From Bacillota bacterium (lineage in GTDB: Bacteria; Bacillota; SHA-98; UBA4971), in contig JBLNDE010000009.1 in the NCBI GenBank assembly GCA_050261335.1, positions 30,010-94,009 on the forward strand: a DNA stretch of 64,000 nucleotides, read 5' to 3'. The notes beneath the pieces were generated by a model, which was not told where the DNA came from, did no database searches, and saw only the letters and a list, made by a program, of their open reading frames with translations. Each line of letters starts with the position of its first letter. Within the stretch, counting starts at the first letter, position 1. Shown piece by piece: positions 5,324-49,364 of this stretch. Made by a program: the position numbers and the translations under genes.

Positions 5324-6339
5324 ACGATGACTGGGCGGGCAGGCTGAGAATCCTCGTGGATGGTGCCCTCGATGCTGCGCTTCCACCGGAGACCGCCACG
5401 CCCGAGGCGCTCCACAGGGCGATGAGGTACGCCGTCTTCCCTGGCGGGAAGCGCGTGCGACCGCTTCTCGCGCTGGCCGGTGCCCTCGCGACCGGGCGCA
5501 GGCGCCGCCGTGTGACCGGGGCCACGGGATGCGATAGCGACGACGAGACGCTCGTGCGGCGCGCGATGCCGTGTGCGGTCGCGGTGGAGCTTGTGCACTC
5601 GTACTCGCTCATCCACGACGACCTTCCCGCCATGGACGACGACGATTTCAGACGGGGCCGGCCCACCGTGCACAGGGCTTTCGGTGAGGCGCTCGCGATC
5701 CTTGCGGGCGACGCGTTGTTGCCGCTTGCCTTCGAGGTGCTTTCCGGCGAAGGAGCGTGCCGCCTCATGGGGTCCGAGGCGGCCTCGGCCGCCATGCGCG
5801 AGCTTGCACACGCTGCCGGAAGCCTCGGGATGGCGGGTGGGCAGGCCATGGACGTGGTAGGCGCTCAAGGCGTGGAAACGACTCATCCCGGGACCGCCGA
5901 TGGCGGCCGTCGTCGCGGCAGCCACCGCCGGGGCGAGGGCAACGGCGAGCGCAGCGGCAGGGCCGGCACCAGTGATGGCGGCGGGGGCGGCGGCGGGTGT
6001 CCTGGCGGGGTTGAACTCCTCGCCGACCTCAAGACCGGAGCGCTCATCCGGGCGTCAGCAAGGTGCGGCGCCATTGCGGCGGGGGCCGGGCCGCAGGAGA
6101 TCGGCGCCCTCACGCGCTACGCGGAACTCTTCGGCCGCGCCTTCCAGGTGTTCGACGATCTCAAGGACATGGCGGATGACGGGTCCCGGACGTTTCCACG
6201 AGCCATGGGAGCCACCGGCGCGCGGCGCTACGGCGAACGCCTCGTGGCCGAGGCTCTGGAGGCACTCTCTGCGTTTGCTCCGGACGAGGCCGCGGAGCTA
6301 TCGGATCTCGCCAGAGCGCTCGGCGCGCCCGTTGCTTGA
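5320..6339 (+). CDS. ispA: Polyprenyl (farnesyl/geranyl) diphosphate synthase carrying an unusual Gly/Arg-rich internal insertion
   Basis: Two DDxxD motifs (LIHDDLPAMDDDD; FQVFDDLKD); ATG overlaps xseB stop (ATGA); the upstream part of the ORF, 5215-5319, is discounted. Confidence 0.85.
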   Translation: MNDDWAGRLRILVDGALDAALPPETATPEALHRAMRYAVFPGGKRVRPLLALAGALATGRRRRRVTGATGCDSDDETLVRRAMPCAVAVELVHSYSLIHDDLPAMDDDDFRRGRPTVHRAFGEALAILAGDALLPLAFEVLSGEGACRLMGSEAASAAMRELAHAAGSLGMAGGQAMDVVGAQGVETTHPGTADGGRRRGSHRRGEGNGERSGRAGTSDGGGGGGGCPGGVELLADLKTGALIRASARCGAIAAGAGPQEIGALTRYAELFGRAFQVFDDLKDMADDGSRTFPRAMGATGARRYGERLVAEALEALSAFAPDEAAELSDLARALGAPVA

Positions 6340-6364
6340 TGGCAAGGGGTGCCTGTGTTATAAT
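6336..6364 (+). promoter_or_regulatory. Promoter TTGATG-17-TGTTATAAT (extended -10) driving the non-coding gene
   Basis: Read directly downstream of the ispA stop. Confidence 0.45.
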
Positions 6365-6370
6365 CATGTG

Positions 6371-6985
6371 TGCCAGGGCAGGTGGTGCAGTATTCTAGTC
6401 AGCACCACCATCTTTGAAGGCGGGCCTAAAAATCCGTCAAGGGCACATCGATGAAGTCCCTGGTGCTGGCCGCCGACGCCCAGTCGGGGGCTGGTGCTGG
6501 GGGTTAAGAGGCGAGGGCGATCTGCAATGGCATGCGGGCGTGGACCCTCTCCTCGCGGAGACCCGACCCCGTGGTGAGACGACACCGATCGGCTGCCACG
6601 GCCGGGGGGTAAACCTGCACCTAGGTGCGGGCAGGTGCGAGACACACCGCGCTTGGTGCAGTGTAGCCTGCCTTGAGTGGCGGGAGCGGGATTGCGGGTA
6701 CCAGGGCGCTCGTCTCCTGGCCGGGAGATGCGCTCGTTGCCGCATGAAACTCCAACTGCAAAAGAGGCTAGAAGATGGTGGGTGCTGCCGAGGAAAACTC
6801 CTAGACTGTCCGAATATGTGGGGCACTCCGGGGATTGCAGTGTGCGCTAAGTGGTAATCCGGCCGTCCGAAGGGGCAACCCCGGGAGGCGGTCGTAAACG
6901 GGAAACCGCCCGAGCGGCAACGCGAGGGAGCACCGCAGGGAAAACCAGCCGGACCTCAAGCCACAATATTTACCCGGGATGCCAC
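6371..6985 (+). ncRNA. ole: Candidate OLE (ornate, large, extremophilic) RNA
   Basis: ~600 nt GC-rich stretch with no coding potential. It has its own promoter and many local hairpins. It lies between ispA and a ~22 kDa membrane protein followed by dxs, which is the canonical ole-oapA locus. Confidence 0.5.
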
Positions 6986-7011
6986 CACCTGCCTGGGACG
7001 TTCTTGAGGTG

Positions 7012-7671
7012 ATGCCTTTCTTGGACCAACGTCTCGCAAGAGCTGTGTCCGTTGGTTTCACAACGTTCTTACTTGCAATACTGGTGAACTTCGTGTCCAA
7101 GATACTCCTGGGTCGCGTCGGGCTGGTTCTTGGACTTTTTGTTCTGTTGGGTATAGTCTTCATCGGGGTTGCGTTCGACGTCATCGGGACCGCTTCGACC
7201 GCCGCGAAAAGACAGCCGTTCCATGCGATGGCCGCGAAGAGGGTTTACGGCGCCCGGCAGGCCCTCCGGATCGTGCGATCCGCCGACCGCGTGGCGAACT
7301 TCTGCAACGACGTGGTGGGCGACATGGCGGGCACCGTGAGTGGAGCGATCGGAGCCAGCATAGTCATACGATTGATGATGGTCATGCCTCCTCGCGTCAG
7401 CGAGACTGTGGTGAGCACCATCGTCGTAGGGATCATCGCGGGCCTCACCGTCGGGGGCAAGGCCTGGAGCAAGAACATGGCCGTGAACGACGCCGAGCGG
7501 ATCGTGCTCGCTGCCGGCAAGATCATAGCCGGGATCGAGTCGGTCACAGGGGTGACGTTCCTTCGTCACAAGAGGTCGAACCACCGCAAGCGTGGCCGAC
7601 CGAGGGAGAGCCCGTGTAGACAAGACCGGAACCGGAAACGGAGCGATAACGAGAGTGGTACGACTCCTTGA
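7012..7671 (+). CDS. oapA: OLE-associated membrane protein OapA-like (ORF extends to 6979)
   Basis: 4-5 TM helices, ~219 aa, GAGGTG RBS; position between the non-coding gene and dxs. Confidence 0.5.
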   Translation: MPFLDQRLARAVSVGFTTFLLAILVNFVSKILLGRVGLVLGLFVLLGIVFIGVAFDVIGTASTAAKRQPFHAMAAKRVYGARQALRIVRSADRVANFCNDVVGDMAGTVSGAIGASIVIRLMMVMPPRVSETVVSTIVVGIIAGLTVGGKAWSKNMAVNDAERIVLAAGKIIAGIESVTGVTFLRHKRSNHRKRGRPRESPCRQDRNRKRSDNESGTTP

Positions 7672-9643
7672 CTCGCTGAACCTTCCCCAGGATTTGAAAC
7701 GGCTCTCGCTGAACGATCTGGCCCAGCTTGCGTCGGAGATTCGTGGTGAGATCATACAGACGGTGTCCAGGACCGGCGGCCACCTCGCACCGAGCCTCGG
7801 GGCGGTGGACCTCGCCATCGCCCTGCATACGGTGCTGGACAGCCCAAGGGACAAGATCATCTGGGATGTCGGGCACCAGGCTTACGCCCACAAGCTCCTT
7901 ACCGGGCGCAGGTCCGCCTTTAACACCCTCAGGCAGTTCGGAGGCATCAGCGGGTTTCCCCGGCGTGACGAAAGCCCCCATGATGCGTTCAACACGGGGC
8001 ACTCGAGCACGTCCATCTCGGCGGCGCTCGGCATGGCCAGGGCCAGGGACCTCAAGGCGGAGGACTTTGCAGTCGTCGCGGTCATCGGCGACGGCTCGCT
8101 CACCGGGGGCATGGCCTTCGAGGCCCTGAACCATGCAGGACACCTGAAGACGGACCTCATCGTGGTGCTCAACGACAATGAGATGTCCATATCCCCGAAC
8201 GTGGGTGCGCTCGCGTCGTACCTTGCCAGGTTACGGACGGAACCACGCCTCCTGAAACTGCGCCAGGACATAGAACGCGTCCTCGAGGGCATTCCGCGCA
8301 TCGGCAAGGACCTCGCGGAGAGTGTGAGGAGGCTCAAGGGAAGCCTCAAGTACCTGGTCGTGCCGGGGATGCTGTTCGAGAGCCTCGGATTCACGTACCT
8401 CGGGCCGCTCGACGGGCACGACATCCCTTCCATCATGCGGACGGTCGAGGACGCGCGGGCCAAGGGCGGGCCCGTGCTCATCCATGTCATCACGAAGAAA
8501 GGCCGCGGCTACGCTCCCGCGGAAGCCGACCCGCGCAAGTTCCATGGAGTGGGCAGGTTCGACGTGGCTTCGGGGGAGCTATCCAGGTCGCAGGGGCCTC
8601 CCACCTGCACGCAGGTGTTCGGGGAGACCATCGCCAGGCTAGCTGCGAGCGATCCGAGGATCGTCGCAATAACCGCGGCGATGCCCGACGGCACCGGCCT
8701 GGATCTCTTCGGACGGCTCTACCCTGAGCGATTCTTCGACGTTGGCATAGCCGAGCAGCATGCGGTGACCCTCGCGGCCGGGCTCGCAAGCCAGGGCCTT
8801 GTGCCGGTCGCGGCGATCTACTCCACTTTTCTCCAGAGAGCGTACGACCAGATCATCCATGACGTGGCCCTGCAGGGGCTTCACGTGGTATTCGCAGTGG
8901 ACAGGGCAGGGCTCGTGGGAGAGGACGGCCCCACCCACCATGGAGCGTTCGACCTCGCCTACCTGCGCAGCGTGCCTGGCATGACCGTGATGGCGCCGGC
9001 CGACGAGGAGGAACTCGTGGCGATGCTCTCTTCTGCCATTGCCATGGACGGGCCTGTCGCGGTGCGATACCCGAGGTCACAGGGATGGGGCCAGGCCGCC
9101 CTGCGACCGTGCAGTCCGATCGAGCGCGGCAGAGGGGTTCTTGTCCGCGACGGAGGCGACGTGGCCATCGTCGCCATCGGAAGCATGGTCCACCCATCCA
9201 TCGAGGCTGCGGGGCATCTCGAGCGGGAGGGGATACACGCCGCCGTGGTCAATGCGAGGTTCGCAAAACCCCTCGATGATGGCCTCATTTCACAGGTGGC
9301 GGAGGAATGCGGCCGGTTGGTGGTGGTGGAGGAGGGGACCTGCGTCGGCGGTCTCGGGAGCGCGGTGACCGAGGTGCTCGCCCGCCGGGGCGGTGCGTCC
9401 ATTCCGATTCGTCACCTTGCGCTGCAGGACAGGTTTGTGGAACACGGGTCCCGCGAGGTGCTTCTGGCCATGTGCGGGCTCACTGCGCACGACATCGCGA
9501 GGGCCGCGACAGATCTCTGCAGAGGCTCCGGGCGCGCGGCGCGGCGGCGCAGGGATTCCTCTCGAACGGGCCAGGATGACATGGCGGCGGCGGGCGCGGA
9601 GGCAACCAAGTATGGCGCCATGAGTCTTCGCCACTTTTCTTGA
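7655..9643 (+). CDS. dxs: 1-deoxy-D-xylulose-5-phosphate synthase. The C-terminal ~15 aa and the stop codon are encoded by a repeat element.
   Basis: Transketolase-like TPP enzyme (GDGSLTGGMAFEALNHAG...); GTG at 7655 in frame; ORF extends to 7592. Confidence 0.9.
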   Translation: MVRLLDSLNLPQDLKRLSLNDLAQLASEIRGEIIQTVSRTGGHLAPSLGAVDLAIALHTVLDSPRDKIIWDVGHQAYAHKLLTGRRSAFNTLRQFGGISGFPRRDESPHDAFNTGHSSTSISAALGMARARDLKAEDFAVVAVIGDGSLTGGMAFEALNHAGHLKTDLIVVLNDNEMSISPNVGALASYLARLRTEPRLLKLRQDIERVLEGIPRIGKDLAESVRRLKGSLKYLVVPGMLFESLGFTYLGPLDGHDIPSIMRTVEDARAKGGPVLIHVITKKGRGYAPAEADPRKFHGVGRFDVASGELSRSQGPPTCTQVFGETIARLAASDPRIVAITAAMPDGTGLDLFGRLYPERFFDVGIAEQHAVTLAAGLASQGLVPVAAIYSTFLQRAYDQIIHDVALQGLHVVFAVDRAGLVGEDGPTHHGAFDLAYLRSVPGMTVMAPADEEELVAMLSSAIAMDGPVAVRYPRSQGWGQAALRPCSPIERGRGVLVRDGGDVAIVAIGSMVHPSIEAAGHLEREGIHAAVVNARFAKPLDDGLISQVAEECGRLVVVEEGTCVGGLGSAVTEVLARRGGASIPIRHLALQDRFVEHGSREVLLAMCGLTAHDIARAATDLCRGSGRAARRRRDSSRTGQDDMAAAGAEATKYGAMSLRHFS

Positions 9644-31831: not shown

Positions 31832-32209
31832 CTACAGTTCAAAGAGGCGCATGATGCCGGCCCGGATCCGGTTGAGCGTGTCTTGCCGAAGGGTTCCGAG
31901 ATACCCCTCGGTGTGACGGACGTCGATGCTGCGCAGCTGGTCAAGGAGCGCGACCGAACCGCGAGGTAAGCCTCCCTCTCCGGGGCTGAGGCTCGGATAC
32001 AGGGTCGGGTTCTCGCACGCCCATCGGCCAGCTTGCGTGGTAAGAGGGATAACGATGAGGGTTGGGTAGCGCAACGTGTCGGAGGGACACCCCACCACGA
32101 TCACCGGTCTCTTGCCTTCCTGTTCATGTCCCTTCGGAGTATCGAAGGGGAGAGCCATAAGAAGCACGTCGCCTGCGCCGACCGTTCGCTCACCGACCAT
32201 GACCCTCAT
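31832..32209 (-). CDS. Type II toxin, PemK/MazF family endoribonuclease
   Basis: ~125 aa with GDVLLMALPF...RPVIVV core; ORF extends to 32392. Confidence 0.7.
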   Translation of the reverse strand: MRVMVGERTVGAGDVLLMALPFDTPKGHEQEGKRPVIVVGCPSDTLRYPTLIVIPLTTQAGRWACENPTLYPSLSPGEGGLPRGSVALLDQLRSIDVRHTEGYLGTLRQDTLNRIRAGIMRLFEL

Positions 32210-32639
32210 CTCCTTCGATGACAAGGCCCCTACCCGGCACGTAGCGCACGGGTCTCGTCTTCGGAGGACCGCCAGGGCCCCAGTCGTATGGGGGAAGCGG
32301 GGCTTCGATCCTTGCTTCCAGCCACTGTCTGTCTTCTTCGGAAGGCTCCGTGGAACGCGGCTCCTCCGAAGCGTTCTCACGGTTACTGTCATCCAGATAC
32401 TTTCTCAGGGCCGTCTCGCGCACTGCGACAGGGGGCTGCGCGTCCTCCCGAGCGTCAAACCTGACAGCTCCGAACGCGTTTCGGGCGACGAAGTCCGCAA
32501 GGTCACTCTCCCGGATACGCCAGAGTTTGCCGGTCTTGACGCCTTTCAGCCTTCCCTGCCTCAGCCAGTCCCGAACGGTCTTCGGACTCACTACCATCCT
32601 CTGGGCGGCCTCCTCAGGGGTGAGCAGCCTCTCGAACAC
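32190..32639 (-). CDS. HTH (excisionase/MerR-like) DNA-binding protein, putative antitoxin
   Basis: N-terminal LTPEEAAQRMVVSPKTVRDWLRQGRL; GTG start with GGAGGGG RBS; overlaps toxin by ~20 nt. Confidence 0.6.
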   Translation of the reverse strand: MFERLLTPEEAAQRMVVSPKTVRDWLRQGRLKGVKTGKLWRIRESDLADFVARNAFGAVRFDAREDAQPPVAVRETALRKYLDDSNRENASEEPRSTEPSEEDRQWLEARIEAPLPPYDWGPGGPPKTRPVRYVPGRGLVIEGDEGHGR

Positions 32640-32740
32640 GTCGACCCCTCCATAACAGGGCTGTAGCCCCCAGCACCCCTCGCGGCCCCTGCGGGCCTGA
32701 CAGCCCTGTGGGGCGCTCCTGGGTCAGCCGTGCGGACTCA

Positions 32741-32815
32741 ACTATACGCTATCACCTGTTGCCGTCGCTATCAATACCGCATAGTACTGTATCATACTTT
32801 ACGGTATACGCTCTG
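32741..32815 (-). promoter_or_regulatory. AT-rich palindrome-containing putative promoter/operator of the toxin-antitoxin operon
   Basis: Only AT-rich block in the neighbourhood; AGTACT/GTATAC palindromes and GCTATCA direct repeats upstream of the antitoxin start. Confidence 0.35.
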
Positions 32816-33065
32816 ACACCATGCTCGGGGCACTGGTTGGCACGTGTGACGTGCGGGGAAGGGAAGACACTCCCACGACGTACCCACCTTCGCCTCGGCC
32901 CTTCCACCTCCTGGCTGGGAGAGGCCTCGAGCCCGCGCACATGCCCATTCTCTCCTGCATACCATATACGGTCAAGCGCTGTACCTGTGTCCGGTCCGCC
33001 CGGTTCTGCGGAGTCCCTCGTGGCACAGTCCGCGAGATGCGGTCTACGAGAGGTGGTGCAAAGTC

Positions 33066-34049
33066 ATGCTTGCCTTCGAGCCCAGAGACCCGAACCTGGT
33101 CCTTGCCGGCCTGGAGGAAGGGAGGCTGTCGCCTGTCGAGGCCCTCGAGGTTCTGAAGCACTCGGTAGAGCTCGGGCAGGCGGGGACGGCCGGAGGGCAG
33201 CGCTTCGAAGAGCCATCGTCTTCCAGCGCCTGGCGCCTGAAGGAAGCCCTCGCCGATCTCGATAGCCTCATCGGCCTCGACAAGGTGAAGGCCCTGGTGC
33301 GCGAGATCGTGGCTTACGTGAAGATCCAGCAGATCAGGGCGGCACGCCAGCTCACGTGCGAGCCCCTTGCCCTGCACATGATATTCAGCGGCAATCCCGG
33401 GACGGGCAAGACTACCTGTGCGCGCCTCTTCGGCAAGATATTCCGCGAGATGGGCGTGCTGGAGAAGGGGCATCTCGTCGAGCGGGAGCGGGCTGATCTG
33501 GTGGGCGAGTACATCGGCCATACGGCGCAGAAGACCCGCGAACAGATTAAGAAGGCCCTCGGCGGAATACTCTTTATCGACGAGGCATACTCGCTGGCAC
33601 GCGGTGGGGAGAAGGACTTCGGCAAGGAATCAATCGATACGCTCATAAGGGCGCTGGAGGACTATCGCGACAAGTTCATCGTGATACTGGCGGGCTATCG
33701 GGACGAGATGGAGACGTTCATCCACACAAACCCCGGCATCAGGTCACGGTTCCCCATCCACATCGAGTTTCCGGACTATACCACCGACGAGCTCCTGCGC
33801 ATCGCAGACCTCATGTTGAAGCAGCGGGATTACCGCCTCGACCTCGCAGCCCGCGCAAGGCTGGAGTTCATTCTGACGCGGAGGGCCGGTCCGGGCAACG
33901 ACCACTCCGGAAACGCCCGGCTCGTGCGCAACATCATCGAGCGGGCCATCAGGCGCCAGGCGCTGCGCCTGGTGGAGAAGCCGAACCTCTCCCGGGAGGA
34001 ACTCATGCTCATCCGGAGGGAAGACATCACCGACGACTTCTCCGCATAG
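33066..34049 (+). CDS. spoVK: Stage V sporulation protein K (AAA+ ATPase)
   Basis: SpoVK-type AAA+ (GNPGTGKTT; ILFIDEAYSL). Confidence 0.85.
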   Translation: MLAFEPRDPNLVLAGLEEGRLSPVEALEVLKHSVELGQAGTAGGQRFEEPSSSSAWRLKEALADLDSLIGLDKVKALVREIVAYVKIQQIRAARQLTCEPLALHMIFSGNPGTGKTTCARLFGKIFREMGVLEKGHLVERERADLVGEYIGHTAQKTREQIKKALGGILFIDEAYSLARGGEKDFGKESIDTLIRALEDYRDKFIVILAGYRDEMETFIHTNPGIRSRFPIHIEFPDYTTDELLRIADLMLKQRDYRLDLAARARLEFILTRRAGPGNDHSGNARLVRNIIERAIRRQALRLVEKPNLSREELMLIRREDITDDFSA

Positions 34050-34056
34050 GAGGCGC

Positions 34057-34704
34057 ATGGTGAGGGATCGGCAGCCTGGAGGGCGTCTTGCAGGAATGAA
34101 GCGTTGCATGGTCGTGGGCAGGCCCAACGTGGGCAAAACCCTTCTCGTCCTGAGCCTCGCCGAGCACCTCAAGGCCAGGACCGTGGATGTGACGTTCACG
34201 GATCCATCAGGGGCCAGGCAGGTAAGGACTTACACCGTCAACGCGGCGATCAGGGAGCTGGTCGGCCCACGCCCCCACCACACCAGGTGCCTTCAGTCGA
34301 TCGTGGTGGAGGTCCCGGCCGGAAAGGGCCGCAAAGTGGTGGAGATCGTGGACAGCACCGGCCTGGTCGACTACATCCACGAGGACCCCCAGGTCCGCAA
34401 GGCGATGGCCCAGACGCTTCAGGCCATCCGCCACGCCCAGGTCATCCTCCACGTGGTGGACGCGTCTACCGCAGGACTCGATGGCTCCGGCCCTCTCGCC
34501 GGCGCCGTCGATCGCCAGATCGCGGACTTTGCCGGGTCGAGAGGGGGCTACTTCATCGTGGCGAACAAGATGGACCTTCCTGATGCTGCGCGCGGCCTTA
34601 CCAGGCTCCGGAGGATGTTCTCGGGCTGCGCGGTGTTGCCCGTCTCCGCGGCCGAAAGGACCGGTCTTCGGGAGGTGAAGCGGCATGTTCTCCGCAGTCT
34701 CTAG
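34057..34704 (+). CDS. Small GTPase: HflX-like G-domain only, N-terminal HflX domain absent
   Basis: G1 GRPNVGKT, G3 DSTG, G4 NKMD; DSTGLVDYIHEDPQVRKAMAQTLQAIRHAQVILHVVDAS resembles HflX; occupies the hflX (ynbA) position. Confidence 0.6.
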   Translation: MVRDRQPGGRLAGMKRCMVVGRPNVGKTLLVLSLAEHLKARTVDVTFTDPSGARQVRTYTVNAAIRELVGPRPHHTRCLQSIVVEVPAGKGRKVVEIVDSTGLVDYIHEDPQVRKAMAQTLQAIRHAQVILHVVDASTAGLDGSGPLAGAVDRQIADFAGSRGGYFIVANKMDLPDAARGLTRLRRMFSGCAVLPVSAAERTGLREVKRHVLRSL

Positions 34705-35290
34705 GTTCCTTGCCGACCTCCTCGCCGTCGCCCTCGCAGGCGCGGTGGTCAAGCTGATGGATGATTACCTCGACTACGAGGCCGATACCGCCCAGGGCCG
34801 GTCGTCGCTCGTGCACGTCCTGGGCAGAGGCGCTGTGCTCTACGCCCTGGTCCTCGCCCTCATAGCCTCAGGGATCAACGCACGCCTCGCATCTCCGCTC
34901 GTCCTCGCAGCGTACGTGGTGGGGATGCTGAAGGACCCCCGCGAAATGCTGTCTCTCGGGTTTTCGGCGTGGATGGAATCGGCGATGGTGGCCGTCGTGA
35001 CGTGGCTGCTCTTCGGGTGGCGCGCCACGTGCGTCTCGGTGCTGCTGATGGCCGCAGTGCAGCTCGGCGACGATCTGCAGGATCTCGCATTCGACCGCGC
35101 CACCGGCGGCGCCAACCTCGCACGCCGCCTCGGCAAGGGCGAGGCGCTCCTCCTGTGTTTCATAGCGCTCCTCGCAGCGCTCATCGTGGACCGGCGCACG
35201 ACTCTTCTCGTATGCATGTGCGCTCCCGTCATCGAGTTGGCCAGCCGCCTTGCGGGAGACAGTGAGGGAGGGGAGACCCATGTCGGTTGA
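34685..35290 (+). CDS. Small membrane protein with UbiA-type Asp-rich motifs (mini prenyltransferase-like)
   Basis: LMDDYLDYEAD and GDDLQDLAFD motifs in ~5 TM, 201 aa; translationally coupled to the GTPase. Confidence 0.4.
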   Translation: MFSAVSRFLADLLAVALAGAVVKLMDDYLDYEADTAQGRSSLVHVLGRGAVLYALVLALIASGINARLASPLVLAAYVVGMLKDPREMLSLGFSAWMESAMVAVVTWLLFGWRATCVSVLLMAAVQLGDDLQDLAFDRATGGANLARRLGKGEALLLCFIALLAALIVDRRTTLLVCMCAPVIELASRLAGDSEGGETHVG

Positions 35291-35534
35291 CGGCTGGATT
35301 CTGCTCCTAGCAGTGGCCTTCCTCCTCGGATACATCGTCGGTCACAGGCATGGCAAGGTGGAAGGGTTCAGGGACGGCGCCGTGTTCGCTCCCATCGAGA
35401 TGCGCCGCGCATCCCTCGAGCGGGGAAGATGCACCATATGTGGGACGGGAACCAAGAAGACGCGGGACCTCGATGACGAATCGAGGAGTAACGACACTGA
35501 CCCAGGCAGGAGATCTCCTCCGGAACGCGAATAA
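35280..35534 (+). CDS. Small membrane protein, hypothetical
   Basis: GAGGGAGGGGAG RBS; one TM helix; overlaps preceding gene. Confidence 0.35.
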   Translation: MSVDGWILLLAVAFLLGYIVGHRHGKVEGFRDGAVFAPIEMRRASLERGRCTICGTGTKKTRDLDDESRSNDTDPGRRSPPERE

Positions 35535-35646
35535 CACGCGAGTAACATGCGGGCGGGCGGTAAAGCGGGCAGGCAGGCGGTCGGTTGAAAGGCCGGCCGG
35601 GTCCTCCGCGGGCAGCCCGACGACGCACGAAGGGGACGAGCATGTG

Positions 35647-36543
35647 ATGGCAAGAGCCGCCCGAAGAGCGCGGACTACTTTCGTGAAGATGCACGGTCTC
35701 GGAAACGACTTCATTCTCTTTGACTTCGCACGACAAGACCAGGTCCCCGACGACGAGGGGGCACAATGGGGGAGCGCGGCGCGCAGGCTTTGTGACAGGC
35801 ATACGGGCGTCGGGGCCGACGGCGTCGTGCTGATCCTGCCGTCCGCTTCGGCTGACATCCGCATGCGCATCTTCAACAGTGACGGGAGCGAGGCCGGGAT
35901 GTGCGGGAACGCCTCCCGTTGCGTGGCCCTGTACGCACGCGACGCAGGCCTTGTAGCAGCGGACGCCATGTCCATAGAGGCGAAGGGAGCGCGCGTCCGC
36001 GCGGAGATAATCGCCGATGGCGAGTTTGCAGGCGAGGTGCGGGTGGACATGGGCCCGCCCAGCTTTCGTCCGGAGGACATCCCCGTAGGGTCTGGTGACG
36101 GTGCCGCTGTCATCGGCGAAAGGCGCGCCCTGGCGGCCGGCGAGTTCGAGATCACGTGCGTGTCCATGGGGAATCCCCACTGCGTGATATTCGTGCCGGA
36201 CGTTGCAGCGGTGGACCTCGAGCGCATCGGCCCGGCCATCGAGCACGACCCCATCTTCCCCGACAGGACTAACGTGGAGTTCGTCCAGGTGAACGGCACA
36301 GGTGACCTCACGGTGCGGGTGTGGGAGAGGGGGGCAGGGCCCACGCTCGCCTGCGGGACTGGTGCATGCGCGTCGCTCGTGGCTGCCGCCGAGCGCGCCC
36401 TCACCAGCAGGTCCGCGAGGGTGCACCTCCCTGGCGGGACGCTTTTCATAGAGTGGAGCCGGCACGGTCGCGTGTTCATGACCGGCCCCGCAACGCGCGT
36501 ATTCACGGGAATCATCGATGACATCGAGGAGTGGTTGAGGTGA
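35647..36543 (+). CDS. dapF: Diaminopimelate epimerase
   Basis: [12 protein letters not shown]-terminus and catalytic Cys motifs; ORF extends to 35350. Confidence 0.9.
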
Positions 36544-37718
36544 GAGTCCAGCAAGCACGAAGGATCACGAATCTACCACCATACCTTTTCGCCGAGGTCG
36601 ACCGGCAGATCGCCCAGGCCCGCAAGCGGGGCGTGGACGTTATCAGCCTCGGCATCGGCGACCCGGATTTCCCCACACCTGCGCCAGTGGTAGCGCGGCT
36701 CAAGGAGGCTGCCGAAGACCCGGCGAACCATCGTTACCCAAGCTATGAGGGGTTGCGCGAGTACCGCGCCGCTGTGGCCGCCTGGTATGAGCGGCGGTTC
36801 GGTGTGCGACTCGACCCCGAGACCGAAGTGGTGTCGCTCATCGGCTCCAAGGAAGGCCTCGCCCACATCCCGTGGTGCTTCATCGATCCGGGAGACCTCG
36901 CGCTCGTGCCGGACCCCGGGTACCCGGTTTACTCTACGGCCGTGCTGCTTGCAGGAGGCGACCCCTTCCTGATGCGACTTCACCCGGAGACGGGATGGCT
37001 GCCGGACCTCGACGCGATCCCCGGGGACGTCAGGTCCGCGGCGAAACTCATGTTCATCAACTATCCGAACAACCCGACCGCCGCCACCGTGGACGGGCTC
37101 GGGTTCTTCGAGTCGGTAGTGGAGTTTGCGCGGAAGAACTCCATCATCGTATGCCACGACGCCGCGTACAGCGAGATCACATTTGACGGCTACGCTGCGC
37201 CTAGCTTCCTCCAGGTGCCCGGGGCCAAGGAGGTGGGAATCGAATTCCACTCGCTGTCGAAGACCTACAACATGACCGGCTGGCGTATCGGATGGGCCGC
37301 CGGGTGCCACGAGGTCGTGGAGGCGCTCGGGAGGCTCAAGACAAACCTCGACTCAGGCATCTTCCAGGCCGTCCAGTATGCTGCGATAACCGCGCTCGAG
37401 ACCCCGCCCGAGCACTTCGCCCAGGTGTTGCCAGCATACGCGAGACGCCGCAGGAAGGTGGCCGCCGCGCTGAACAGCCTCGGATGGAGCCTCGAACCCC
37501 CGAAGGGGACCTTCTACGTTTGGGCGCCGGTCCCGGAGGGATATTCATCGATAGAGTTCTCGCGATACGTCCTTGATAAGGCTGGTGTGTTCGTCACGCC
37601 GGGGATCGGCTACGGGCCCGGCGGCGAGGGCTATTTCAGGATATCCGTCACCATCGACGACGCCAGACTTGAAGAGGCGCTCTCGCGCCTCGAAGCGGCG
37701 GGAGTAAGGTTCTCATGA
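36531..37718 (+). CDS. dapL: LL-diaminopimelate aminotransferase (likely GTG start at 36540)
   Basis: Class I/II PLP aminotransferase with [11 protein letters not shown]-terminus typical of DapL. Confidence 0.8.
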
Positions 37719-39130
37719 CGGAGCGAGGAGCGACCGACGACATCACGGGAAGCGGCCCCGTCGCCGACATCGACATCGACATCCGCGACACTGACGTCGG
37801 CGTCGGCCGGGACACCGGCCGAGACATCGGCGTCGACATCGATCCGGGCCTGGCAGCGCTCATGCGGGAGGCTGCGAGAGCGTGCACGCCTGATATCGAG
37901 AGGCTCGACGCTCTTGCCGGGCGTAACCTCGCCAGGGTGCTCGAGGCGTTCAGAGACGTGGGCGTGACCGACCAGGATTTCGGCGGCACGACAGGGTACG
38001 GCTACGATGATCGCGGCAGAGAGGTGACGGAGGCGCTCTTCGCCCGGGTGTTCGGGGCCGAGGCGGCCATCGTGCGCCACCAGATCGTGTCCGGTACCCA
38101 TGCTCTCGCCCTGTGCCTCTTCGGCCTCCTTCTCCCCGGAGACGAGGTCCTGTTTGCCAGCGGCGAACCATACGACACCCTGCGCGATGTGGTGGGCATG
38201 GCAGGGCCGGTGCCAGGCTCCCTCGCCGAGCTCGGGGTGACGTGGCGGGTCGTTCCACGCGAAGGCGGAGGCCAGGCGCTCGACGTGGACCGGATACGCC
38301 GTGCCCTCCACGAGCGCACGAAGGTCGTTTTCATCCAGCGGTCCAGGGGATACTCATGGCAGTCTTCGGTGCCGGTACACGAGATCGAACGCGTCGCCCG
38401 GGCGATCAGGGCGGACAAGCCTGACGCCATCGTAGTCGTGGACAACTGTTACGGCGAGTTTACCGAGGACCGGGAACCCACTGCGGCCGCCGCCTCGGTC
38501 GTTTCAGGCTCGCTCATCAAGAATCCCGGCGGCGGGATCGCCCCCGCAGGAGGCTACATCGCGGGTAAGCGTCATCTCATCGAGCGCATCGCCGCACGCC
38601 TTACTGCCCCTGGGGTGGGCGCGGCCGTCGGCCCGAGCCTTGGGCAGTCGCGCCTCATCCTCCAGGGCCTTTTCCTGGCTCCCGTCATGGTGGCGGAGTC
38701 CATGGCAGGCACGCGCGTGGCGGCCCACGTTTTCCGGGCGCTCGGGTACCCTGTGCTGCCTGACGACCGGGAGCAGCCATCCGATACGGTGCTCGCCGTG
38801 AGGATGTTCTCCCGGGACCGCCTGGTTACGTTCTGCCGCGGCTTTCACCTGGCAAGTCCCGTGAACGCGCGTTACGCGCCCGAACCGTGCGCCCTCCCCG
38901 GGTACTCTGACAGCGTCATCATGGCCGGCGGGACGTTCGTGCAGGGGTCGTCGTCGGAACTCACAGTGGATGCGCCCCTGCGCCCGCCGTACACAGCATA
39001 TATCCAGGGCGGGCTTTCAAGGCACCACGTTCAGCTGGCGGTCCTCGCGGGACTCACCGCGCTGGCACGCAGGGGCATGCTGAGGCCTGCGGAGGCGGTG
39101 GAGGCAGGGGCGGCGGCGGATACGCGGTGA
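37715..39130 (+). CDS. ynbB: YnbB-like PLP-dependent protein (aluminium-resistance family). The N-terminal DIDIDI/DIGVDID repeat may be a leader, with the true start at 37862.
   Basis: [16 protein letters not shown] motif characteristic of the YnbB family. Confidence 0.75.
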
Positions 39131-47226: not shown

Positions 47227-47304
47227 CGGGGCGTGGCGCAGTTTGGCTAGCGCGCCTGAATGGGGTTCAGGAGGTCGCGAGTTCAAGTCTCGCCGCTCCG
47301 ACCA
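47227..47304 (+). tRNA. tRNA-Pro (anticodon GGG), CCA encoded
   Basis: Manual cloverleaf: acceptor CGGGGCG/CGCUCCG, anticodon stem CCUGA/UCAGG with loop AUGGGGU, T-arm GCGAG-UUCAAGU-CUCGC. Confidence 0.8.
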
Positions 47305-49279: not shown

Positions 49280-49364
49280 GCGAGAGTGGCGGAACGGCAG
49301 ACGCGCCAGACTTAGGATCTGGTGGGTAACCCCCGTGAGGGTTCAAATCCCTCCTCTCGCACCA
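49280..49364 (+). tRNA. tRNA-Leu (anticodon UAG), CCA encoded, long variable arm
   Basis: Manual fold; close match to the bacterial tRNA-Leu scaffold (UGGCGGAA..GGCAGACGCGC D-arm, GAGGGUUCAAAUCCCUC T-arm); preceded by a TTGATC-16-TGGTACAAT promoter at 49176-49203. Confidence 0.8.

Follow-up and report, generated by a model that had tools for sequence, protein, structure and literature searches.

A conserved gene trio for a stand-alone GTPase, a short UbiA-like membrane protein and a small CxxC protein downstream of spoVK in Bacillota

Results

We investigated a gene cluster in a Bacillota genome, using the whole 64-kb (64,000-nucleotide) stretch of DNA as the window of analysis; all features described below lie on its forward strand. 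The first gene of the cluster is spoVK (33066–34049), which encodes an AAA+ ATPase of 327 aa. It is followed by genes for a stand-alone GTPase (34096–34704; 202 aa), a polytopic, internally duplicated and apparently remote UbiA-like membrane protein (34685–35290; 201 aa), and a small CxxC protein (35280–35534; 84 aa from its ATG, or 94 aa from an alternative TTG start at 35250 in the ORF listing). Hereafter, these three genes are called the trio. The stop of the GTPase gene and the start of the membrane gene share 20 nt (34685–34704), and the membrane and small genes share 11 nt. Shine-Dalgarno-like GGAGG/GAGGTG sequences are located inside the upstream genes, ahead of the membrane-gene and small-gene starts; the one ahead of the 20-nt overlap, GAGGTGAAG, also encodes the GTPase codons E-V-K. 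An earlier note on this DNA had described three ORFs with these two overlaps, which are real, and a GTPase of 215 aa, which is correct as the length of the ORF (open from 34057; 34057–34704) but not for the start of the protein. We rejected a start at 34057 because relatives do not conserve the 13-codon extension and have stop codons within it; the most likely start is the ATG at 34096 (MKRC..., 202 aa), judging from its conservation in relatives. Among 80 loci, 72 had a GTPase/membrane overlap of exactly 20 nt, and the membrane gene started with TTG in 55 and with ATG in 25; independent gene calls in L084 and L085 gave an identical overlap. Between the membrane and small genes, overlaps of 4 or 11 nt (−4 or −11) were the commonest among related loci.

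Relatives were detected in 267 species genomes. The loci that were fetched almost invariably carried spoVK, the GTPase, the membrane gene, and the small gene in this order: the membrane gene followed the GTPase in 77 of 77 loci, the small gene came next in 76 of 77, and a co-oriented spoVK was located within 300 nt upstream of the GTPase in 65 of 73, most commonly with a 4-nt overlap. Since this arrangement recurs in approximately 80 independent loci, it is not a product of chance, and the co-conservation of the three genes is far stronger than the earlier note could tell. The trio is conserved across several classes of Bacillota, in hundreds of non-model spore formers, whereas the interval between spoVK and ynbA in B. 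subtilis presumably contains none of these genes. The co-conservation is further seen in the exact 20-nt overlap and in two natural fusions that join the membrane protein to the small one (P0166 and P0206; hhalign 98.9% and 98.7%). The clade of L085 departs from this pattern: its GTPase and membrane genes adjoin hflX-ynbB, no spoVK occurs within the 6 kb fetched upstream, and signs of apparent decay are a degenerate second Asp motif in the membrane protein and the loss of the small gene.

Database labels of the relatives are inconsistent ('HflX', 'Era', '50S ribosome-binding GTPase', 'DHNA octaprenyltransferase'). The system had been called uncharacterized, and indeed our literature search found no paper describing the trio, nor any joining SpoVK to such a GTPase or to UbiA; the text of the SpoVK paper mentions no GTPase or UbiA neighbor (PMC11513918). 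An anti-phage defense system was considered and rejected, as a PADLOC scan gave only weak generic P-loop matches for SpoVK and the GTPase and none for the membrane and small proteins.

The upstream gene is the positional ortholog of spoVK, in the context miaA-hfq-...-spoVK-...-ynbB. Its product contains the Pfam domains AAA and AAA_lid_6 and scored 400 bits against NCBIfam TIGR02881 (spore_V_K), for which the cut-off is 423, compared with 278 for CbbX and 257 for EccA. Roughly 100 nt upstream of spoVK, we found a sigma-K-type (mother-cell) promoter-like site, ACATGCCCATTCTCTCCTGCATACCATA (32939–32966), which is the sole match to AC-N17-CATAnnnTA on both strands of the window (0.14 expected); the N16 variant of the consensus gave no match. 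The consensus letters are those of the B. subtilis literature, and the promoter assignment is a consensus match only. Exact matches at −350 to +60 of the spoVK start occurred in 16 of 67 related loci, against an expectation of 0.0098 per locus (approximately 0.7 in total). Downstream of the trio, three genes on the same strand overlap one another (35647–39130), namely dapF (35647–36543; TIGR00652 DapF, 303 bits), a gene whose translation we read as that of an LL-DAP aminotransferase (36531–37718), and a gene for a ynbB-like PLP enzyme (37715–39130; Pfam Met_gamma_lyase, 493 bits). No terminator-like site was found in 32400–36000, and these genes may be co-transcribed with the spoVK cluster. 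Among 61 loci, dapF and/or dapL were located downstream of the trio in 21, ynbB in 42, and hflX in 11. The spoVK P2 promoter is known to be sigma-K dependent (PMC517825), SpoVK, which occurs only in sporulating Bacillota, has recently been identified as a chaperone promoting MurG at the forespore surface (PMC11513918), and ShfA, a forespore membrane protein, binds undecaprenyl phosphate (PMC13598258). The role of SpoVK, the sigma-K-like sites, the ShfA precedent, and the DAP-pathway genes in the 21 loci suggest a link between the trio and sporulation.

As judged from its sequence, the GTPase is a TRAFAC-class, MMR_HSR1-type G domain with intact G1–G5 and is predicted to bind and hydrolyze GTP. 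Its only Pfam domain is MMR_HSR1 (PF01926; 47.8 bits, gathering threshold 21.9), and no domain precedes G1, which begins at residue 8 of 202, in keeping with its earlier description as a bare G domain. The motifs G1 (GRPNVGKT; 34117–34140), G2 (T63; 34282–34284), G3 (DSTG; 34351–34362), G4 (NKMD; 34564–34575), and G5 (SA; 34645–34650) are all invariant among 81 homologs. Residues G8, G13, K14, T63, D86, G89, N157, K158, D160, and S184 are 100% conserved in these sequences, and H61, K77, R101, H119, and Y152 are likewise invariant; a Leu (hydrophobic) occupies the position of the Ras catalytic Gln, and the P-loop contains an Asn. The AF2 model (pLDDT 89.9) contains a β-hairpin and a helix (approximately residues 27–56) between helix 1 and switch I, so that the insert previously noticed between G1 and G3 is present. 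The invariant motifs, the confident G-domain model, and EngA, MnmE, and Era as the closest structures argue for GTPase competence. The family, proteins of approximately 195–216 aa, gave 152 matches. No NCBIfam family reached its cut-off on the GTPase; Obg was the nearest family in the profile comparison, and EngA, MnmE, and Era were nearest in the structural one. Thus, of the HflX-like motifs that had been claimed, the motifs stand, but a specifically HflX-like character does not. A metal site composed of switch I (H61, C65) and the CxxC of the small protein was also considered and was dropped, as C65 occurs in only 48 of 81 sequences.

The GTPase had been viewed as an HflX that lacks its N-terminal ribosome-binding domains, occupies the hflX position, and performs an HflX-like ribosome job with the membrane protein. 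Consistent with this, it is encoded between spoVK and ynbB, where we take Bacillus to have hflX, no full-length hflX was found in the 64-kb window, its post-G3 stretch (VRxAMAQTL...ILHVVDA) resembles HflX by eye, and HflX is among its PDB profile matches (36 bits). However, it scored 28.1 bits against NCBIfam HflX TIGR03156 (cut-off 216.75), with the C-terminal half alone aligning, and Pfam detected in it neither of the HflX N-terminal domains, GTP-bdg_N (PF13167) and GTP-bdg_M (PF16360), which neighboring true HflX proteins do carry. Moreover, in L003, L084, and L085 the trio is directly followed by a full-length hflX with these domains, and hflX is downstream in the further 11 of 61 loci, making at least 14 loci in all; wherever hflX is present, the trio sits between spoVK and hflX. 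This co-occurrence indicates that the GTPase is an addition rather than a substitute. With HflX not even the nearest family, we reject a truncated HflX replacing hflX, and an HflX-derived ribosome function is very improbable. The replacement claimed in the earlier note was not borne out, and its "hflX slot" is imprecise, because the trio precedes hflX where both are present. The 'HflX' label of trio GTPases in databases therefore fails on domains, score, nearest family, and locus.

A broader alternative is that the pair of GTPase and membrane protein forms a membrane-tethered translation or ribosome GTPase system tied to hflX-ynbB, with the adjacency to spoVK being inherited synteny without any role in sporulation. 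Association with ribosomes is usual among MMR_HSR1 GTPases. Alicyclobacillus has a small gene that overlaps hflX, which in turn overlaps ynbB, so the string could be a relic of ancestral gene order and not a sign of common function, and the pair in the L085 clade adjoins hflX-ynbB rather than spoVK. Conversely, hflX was not downstream in 50 of 61 loci, whereas spoVK was adjacent in 65 of 73, frequently with the 4-nt overlap; the L085 clade, as described above, appears to be decaying; and the GTPase contains no RNA-binding domain. Considering both sides, we find this alternative quite unlikely.

The membrane protein is best described, from its sequence and a weak fold match, as an internally duplicated, putative remote UbiA relative of approximately seven segments. 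It consists of two homologous halves (repeat match, E = 2e-12), each with a DDxxDxxxD motif: D26, D27, D30, and D34 in motif 1 (34760–34786; D26–D34) and D129, D130, D133, and D137 in motif 2 (35069–35095; D129–D137). These motifs had been recognized earlier, and their core Asp residues are invariant among relatives. A positive-inside count predicted both Asp-motif loops to be cytoplasmic, but a simple 7-TM topology is at odds with the membrane–small fusions and with the helices of the AF2 model. Against Pfam UbiA (PF01040), the protein scored 29.2 bits, below the gathering threshold of 34.2, while UbiA was found at E ≤ 0.01 in 40 of 78 family members (best, 8e-10) and was the sole recurring Pfam family. 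Its best PDB sequence match was DGGGPS, a UbiA-family protein, followed by prenyl-diphosphate synthases aligned on DDxxD. The best sequence and fold matches were DGGGPS and AfUbiA, with the fold match being weak. A Foldseek search of the model against the PDB gave no significant match (best E, 0.1), and the low-level matches were mostly prenyl-diphosphate synthases. A profile search returned 322 matches, and those among the matches listed were all short and near the protein's own size; the best 150 of the 322 were 144–273 aa long, mostly approximately 175–230 aa. 

DDxxDxxxD-type motifs bind Mg2+ and prenyl diphosphate in UbiA enzymes and soluble prenyl-diphosphate synthases. The invariant Asp motifs, the duplicated halves, and the UbiA/DGGGPS matches predict an isoprenoid-diphosphate site in the membrane protein. 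One possibility is that it works as a genuine prenyltransferase or terpene-type enzyme of minimal size and produces a spore-specific isoprenoid lipid, analogous to the sporulenes of B. subtilis, with the GTPase acting as an assembly or activation factor and no direct link to peptidoglycan. The UbiA/isoprenoid-synthase matches support this equally, the completeness and invariance of the two Asp motifs would be expected of a catalytic site more than of one that only binds a ligand, and the context (spoVK adjacency, sigma-K-like sites) points to sporulation. Nevertheless, no acceptor-binding features were identifiable, no isoprenoid-pathway gene is conserved alongside, in contrast to DAP-pathway genes in 21 of 61 loci, and the protein seems to lack equivalents of TM1 and TM9 as well as of R22, which AfUbiA needs for GPP binding (PMC4106721). 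We consider such an enzyme unlikely.

The small protein has a single N-terminal hydrophobic helix, a basic tail, and a CxxC (C51–C54; 35430–35441); G21, G25, C51, and C54 are invariant in 75 sequences. Searches against Pfam and PDB sequences found nothing significant, with weak Rad50 zinc-hook and Yae1_N matches in a few members. The trio might also be read as a split, FeoB-like, GTP-gated transporter or channel for a divalent cation (Mg2+, Mn2+, Ca2+, or Zn2+), in which the invariant Asp/Glu residues of the membrane protein would bind the ion itself instead of Mg2+-diphosphate and the CxxC protein would act as a subunit that handles metal, possibly for spore mineralization. However, the membrane protein has no similarity to FeoB or any transporter family, its recurring matches are only UbiA and prenyl-diphosphate enzymes, and the spacing of its duplicated DDxxDxxxD is that of a prenyl-diphosphate site (PMC4106721), leaving this reading a small chance of being right.

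Discussion

We propose that the trio is a mother-cell sporulation module in which the GTPase controls an isoprenoid-diphosphate-binding membrane protein alongside SpoVK and MurG, a proposal that we regard as quite possible, though short of probable. In such a module, spoVK and the trio would constitute one mother-cell sporulation operon transcribed from the sigma-K-type promoter. The membrane and small proteins would form one membrane complex with the Asp-rich loops facing the cytoplasm, the GTPase would dock at these loops, and GTP binding and hydrolysis would toggle the isoprenoid-diphosphate site. That the GTPase physically touches the membrane protein is something we infer from the gene overlap alone. 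Because SpoVK promotes MurG at the forespore surface, the likeliest substrate would be an undecaprenyl-(di)phosphate-linked spore cortex precursor, which the membrane protein may bind, hand over, or chemically transfer. The possible ancestral synteny suggested by the Alicyclobacillus overlaps, the L085 clade, without spoVK in the fetched 6 kb, and the topology misfits count against the proposal.

A bolder form of the proposal, which we hold as doubtful, is that, in the majority of non-model spore formers, the trio supplies the SpoVK system with its missing membrane arm, a G-protein-gated minimal UbiA-type site (two three-helix repeats and a linker) that would act at the outer forespore membrane to capture or transfer undecaprenyl-diphosphate-linked cortex precursors. 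If this were true, it would be the first GTPase switch controlling an intramembrane prenyl-diphosphate site and a present-day counterpart of the small, duplicated protein from which the UbiA fold has been proposed to descend. The membrane protein is far smaller than any characterized UbiA enzyme and its duplication is visible in the sequence, so it bears on the origin of the UbiA/isoprenoid-synthase fold in any case. The trio provides three new candidates for connecting SpoVK with the membrane and with lipid-linked precursors, together with a concrete hypothesis on spore cortex assembly that can be tested; B. subtilis, where SpoVK has been studied, presumably lacks these genes at this position.

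Compared with known systems, the trio GTPase shares with HflX (YnbA) a TRAFAC-class G domain, a hydrophobic residue at the catalytic position, the post-G3 likeness, and the place between spoVK and ynbB. Unlike the ribosome-splitting HflX, it has no GTP-bdg_N, GTP-bdg_M, or C-terminal domains and carries the β-hairpin and helix insert before switch I. Obg, Era, EngA (Der), and MnmE each have their own extra RNA- or ribosome-binding or dimerization domains, whereas the trio GTPase is a bare G domain on which none of their NCBIfam models reached the cut-off and, unlike theirs, its gene shares 20 nt with the start of a membrane-protein gene. FeoB combines a G domain and an iron permease in a single polypeptide; here, two genes with a 20-nt overlap encode a G domain and a UbiA-like partner, to which the membrane part of FeoB is unrelated. 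The trio adjoins spoVK, whose product promotes MurG, a lipid-II-forming enzyme, but its link to SpoVK-MurG and ShfA is by gene context only. ShfA (YabQ) has no sequence relationship to the trio, although a polyprenyl-phosphate-binding membrane partner would fit the theme. The membrane protein is also to be compared with the UbiA superfamily. On the cytoplasmic side of AfUbiA, the diphosphate and two Mg2+ are bound by Asp-rich motifs (PMC4106721), and, like UbiA, MenA, DGGGPS, and UBIAD1, the trio protein has a two-fold repeat and two such motifs, each following a hydrophobic helix on a loop with a predicted cytoplasmic location. Members of the superfamily have 8–9 TM helices in two four-helix bundles, approximately 280–300 aa, and N/DDxxDxxxD and DxxxD motifs (PMC4106721), whereas the trio protein, with approximately seven hydrophobic segments in 201 aa, is shorter and seemingly without TM1 and TM9 equivalents, and its two halves are still homologous by sequence.

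We examined three overlapping genes that follow spoVK (33066–34049, +) in a window with a GC content of about 65%. The ORFs of the GTPase (34057–34704), the membrane protein (34685–35290) and the small protein (35280–35534), all on the + strand, overlap by 20 and 11 nt, respectively, as the earlier note had given them, and a Shine–Dalgarno-like sequence lies before each of the three starts, within the preceding gene. For the GTPase, said to be 215 aa long, the ORF span held but the start did not: the ATG at 34057 lacks conservation, with GTG, no start codon or stop codons at that place in close relatives, whereas the start at 34096 (ATG-AAG-CG-TGC, MKRC) is kept throughout the relatives. Since homologues are mostly 194–216 aa long, with 202 aa the commonest length, the GTPase most likely comprises 202 aa from 34096, judging by sequence conservation.

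Ahead of spoVK, mutL, miaA and hfq lie on the + strand, and the trio is followed by dapF, an aminotransferase-like gene, a ynbB-like gene for a PLP enzyme, and speD. The dapF ORF as mechanically listed (35350–35646 being the part in question) opens at 35350, within the small gene; its true start is probably near 35647, because the alignment to the DapF model begins only at residue 110 of the listed ORF. Between hfq and spoVK, a PemK/MazF-like toxin gene (31832–32392, 61 bits) and an HTH_17 gene (32190–32639, 55 bits) lie on the − strand; the listed ORFs share about 200 nt, and one of the two therefore probably starts further in. The pair may be an insertion, because hfq and spoVK are only about 0.1–1 kb apart in several related loci. 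Elsewhere, the window holds a full-length OLE (ornate large extremophilic) RNA at 6366–7004 (+; Rfam RF01071, 452.9 bits, model positions 1–616 of 616), tRNA-Pro(GGG) at 47227–47304 (+) and tRNA-Leu(TAG) at 49280–49364 (+).

The gene upstream of the trio is the positional spoVK, its 400 bits on TIGR02881 (cut-off 423) clearly exceeding its scores for CbbX and EccA. When one genome per species was scanned, 267 genomes contained relatives, from which 80 loci were fetched; 5 further loci were added from contig look-ups, and the first 83 loci were searched by tblastn with the window proteins. Among the 73 loci with enough upstream sequence, spoVK lay on the same strand within 300 nt upstream in 65 and 1.4–5.8 kb upstream of the GTPase gene in six, and was absent from the flank in two. 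Other DNA fills the interval in the six loci (L036, L040, L052, L055, L068 and L082). The GTPase gene was followed by the membrane gene in 77 of 77 loci, and the latter by the small gene in 76 of 77, bearing out the expectation that the three genes are conserved together elsewhere. The usual wider order is miaA-hfq-...-spoVK-GTPase-membrane-small-(hflX)-(dapF/dapL)-ynbB, in carriers labelled Limnochordia, Thermosediminibacterales and Tepidanaerobacter, Thermoanaerobacterium, Alicyclobacillus macrosporangiidus, Acetohalobium arabaticum, a Peptococcaceae MAG and a Veillonellaceae MAG. Two loci (L018, L045) and two database proteins (P0001, P0004) carry labels of Betaproteobacteria, Bacteroidota or Sumerlaeota MAGs; their proteins are 45–98% identical to those of the window, and the carriers are probably mis-binned contigs.

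The overlaps are conserved as well. The GTPase and membrane genes overlap by exactly 20 nt in 72 of 80 loci, and an independent gene caller gave the same overlap in L084 (Veillonellaceae) and L085 (a metagenome locus); spoVK and the GTPase gene most often overlap by 4 nt, and the overlap of the membrane and small genes is usually 4 or 11 nt. The invariant C-terminal GTPase residues E193-V194-K195 are encoded by GAGGTGAAG (window 34670–34704; same place in loci L001–L085), which also serves as the Shine–Dalgarno sequence of the membrane gene, 6–7 nt before its start codon (TTG in 55 loci, ATG in 25). This stretch is constrained in two ways, as GTPase C-terminus and as ribosome-binding sequence.

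Taking the sigma-K consensus to be AC, 16–17 nt, CATAnnnTA, we found a single match on either strand of the 64-kb window (0.14 expected per window), at 32939–32966, about 100 nt upstream of spoVK. Of 67 related loci, 16, belonging to several lineages, had an exact match between −350 and +60 of the spoVK start, with about 0.01 expected per locus, and the stretch 32400–36000 showed no terminator-like site. The B. subtilis spoVK gene is served by a sigma-E and a sigma-K promoter (PMC517825). SpoVK, a forespore-localised AAA+ putative chaperone occurring only in sporulating Bacillota, promotes MurG activity during cortex synthesis (PMC11513918). We infer a mother-cell operon that would comprise at minimum spoVK and the trio and might extend into dapF-dapL-ynbB.

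The GTPase had been described as a bare G domain with an insert and G1–G5 motifs, and this description stands. Its sole Pfam match was MMR_HSR1 (47.8 bits), and G8, G13 and K14 (G1), T63 (G2), D86 and G89 (G3), N157, K158 and D160 (G4), and S184 (G5) are 100% conserved in 81 family members, as are H61, K77, R101, H119 and Y152 beyond the motifs. Leu directly follows G3 in 86% of these members and the P-loop carries Asn11 in 96%, features that we take to mark the "hydrophobic-substituted", cation-dependent GTPases (Era, EngA, MnmE, FeoB, Obg, HflX). The 152 homologues that a search returned are about 195–216 aa long and carry generic or contradictory source names ("predicted GTPase", "HflX", "Era", "HSR1"). 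The further label "HflX-like" proved not to be specific, because the scores favour other families: against PDB sequences, the family profile ranked B. subtilis Obg first (60 bits), ahead of Der (49), MnmE (41) and HflX (36), and no NCBIfam GTPase model came near its cut-off with the window protein (YchF-related, 42 bits; EngA, 41; Obg, 32; HflX, 28 with a cut-off of 217; Era, 27).

Nor does the GTPase occupy the place of hflX. The Alicyclobacillus locus L003 reads spoVK, GTPase, membrane, small, hflX, ynbB, glnR, glnA, all neighbours overlapping, with a full-length hflX of 434 aa that includes GTP-bdg_N and GTP-bdg_M; L084 has the same order with an hflX of 603 aa. Of the other loci, 61 extended far enough downstream, and 11 of these also have hflX after the trio; the 64-kb window has no hflX. 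The gene of the small GTPase thus comes in addition to hflX, lying between it and spoVK, and is not a degenerate hflX; the reading of the GTPase as a truncated HflX is very improbable.

A translation-linked role with hflX-ynbB draws on L085 (JGI metagenome 3300025516, 5409–8247) and its clade (P0150–P0154), in which the GTPase and a 181-aa membrane protein adjoin hflX-ynbB with the 20-nt overlap kept, and the 6 kb fetched from the upstream side of L085 contains no spoVK. However, this clade also has a shortened or degenerate second Asp motif (DNWID) and no small gene, and we consider such a role quite unlikely. A tautomerase gene stands in the small gene's place there.

In alignments of the membrane protein family (A2, 78 sequences from the loci; A4, 35 from the protein database), D26, D30, Y53, G80, M81, E98, D129 and D133 are invariant and D27, D34, Y77, D130 and G150 nearly so. 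The protein has two homologous halves (hhalign 97.7%, E 2e-12; residues 13–79 with 116–183), each consisting of a hydrophobic helix, DDxxDxxxD, xG..L and a hydrophobic stretch. Among Pfam families, UbiA alone recurred, with hits in 40 of 78 members (best E 8e-10), and the family profile ranked the UbiA-family DGGGPS first among PDB sequences (E 0.002), followed by soluble prenyl-diphosphate synthases aligned on the DDxxD motif; a Foldseek search with the membrane protein model gave no significant match. These results point weakly and consistently to a UbiA relationship. They fit the published UbiA pattern of eight or nine TM helices in two pseudosymmetric four-helix bundles, with NDxxDxxxD and DxxxD motifs where TM2 and TM6 end on the cytoplasmic side, and a structure resembling soluble trans-prenyl-diphosphate synthases (PMC4106721).

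The membrane protein has about seven hydrophobic segments: one before motif 1, four between the motifs, as in UbiA, and two after motif 2. From this layout, it looks like a UbiA protein without TM1 and TM9. Positive-inside counts across the family place both motif loops in the cytoplasm (mean K+R 8.9 on that side vs 1.7 on the other). Searched exhaustively with a profile, 1.84 billion representative proteins gave only 322 matches at E ≤ 0.001, and the best 150 of these were 144–273 aa long, mostly about 175–230 aa, short like the query and unlike canonical-length UbiA enzymes, which we read as a small, discrete family. Of the UbiA assignment in the earlier note, the two Asp-rich motifs stood, with core Asp residues invariant, whereas the Pfam UbiA hit of the window protein (29.2 bits) fell below the gathering score of 34.2. 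By sequence, the protein appears to be a remote, minimal UbiA relative that retains metal-diphosphate-binding motifs without being a canonical member; its reading as a true minimal prenyltransferase that produces a spore isoprenoid is unlikely. Both it and the GTPase are unnamed families within known superfamilies.

In the small protein, a single hydrophobic helix lies between a short N-terminus and a basic tail, and G21, G25, C51 and C54 (CxxC) do not vary among 75 sequences; searches with this protein gave no significant family or PDB match. The database proteins P0166 (270 aa, hhalign 98.9%) and P0206 (260 aa, 98.7%), in which the membrane and small proteins are naturally fused, argue that these two proteins work as one unit, although the fusions may be assembly frameshifts. 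In these fusions the added helix has basic sequence on either side, in the joining linker and in the tail, which is at odds with a simple membrane-spanning topology, and the AF2 model adds to this conflict by drawing membrane-protein residues 42–81 as one 40-residue helix.

Gene anatomy, conservation, overlaps, intact GTPase motifs, duplicated Asp-rich motifs and natural fusions were observed directly. Far less certain is the overall picture that we tentatively favour, in which the operon encodes a complex of the membrane and small proteins, with the GTPase docking on its cytoplasmic Asp-rich face and acting as a nucleotide switch. FeoB, where a G domain of similar kind controls a membrane partner, offers a precedent; that the trio is itself a split FeoB-like cation transporter seems as improbable as the prenyltransferase reading. 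In the favoured switch model, the Asp-rich site would bind Mg2+ and a polyprenyl diphosphate, by analogy with AfUbiA (PMC4106721). The lipid might be an undecaprenyl-linked cortex precursor, because SpoVK acts on MurG, ShfA, another forespore membrane protein, binds undecaprenyl phosphate (PMC13598258), and a third of loci have DAP-pathway genes downstream of the trio.

The observation that opened this analysis is confirmed and its interpretation partly supported. A literature search, which covered the text of the SpoVK paper, found no description of the spoVK-linked gene set, in agreement with the view that a minimal GTPase paired with a prenyltransferase-like membrane protein is uncharacterised as a system. 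A G-protein gene overlapping a UbiA-like membrane gene within a spoVK string has no characterised counterpart, and the components of the trio belong to known superfamilies.
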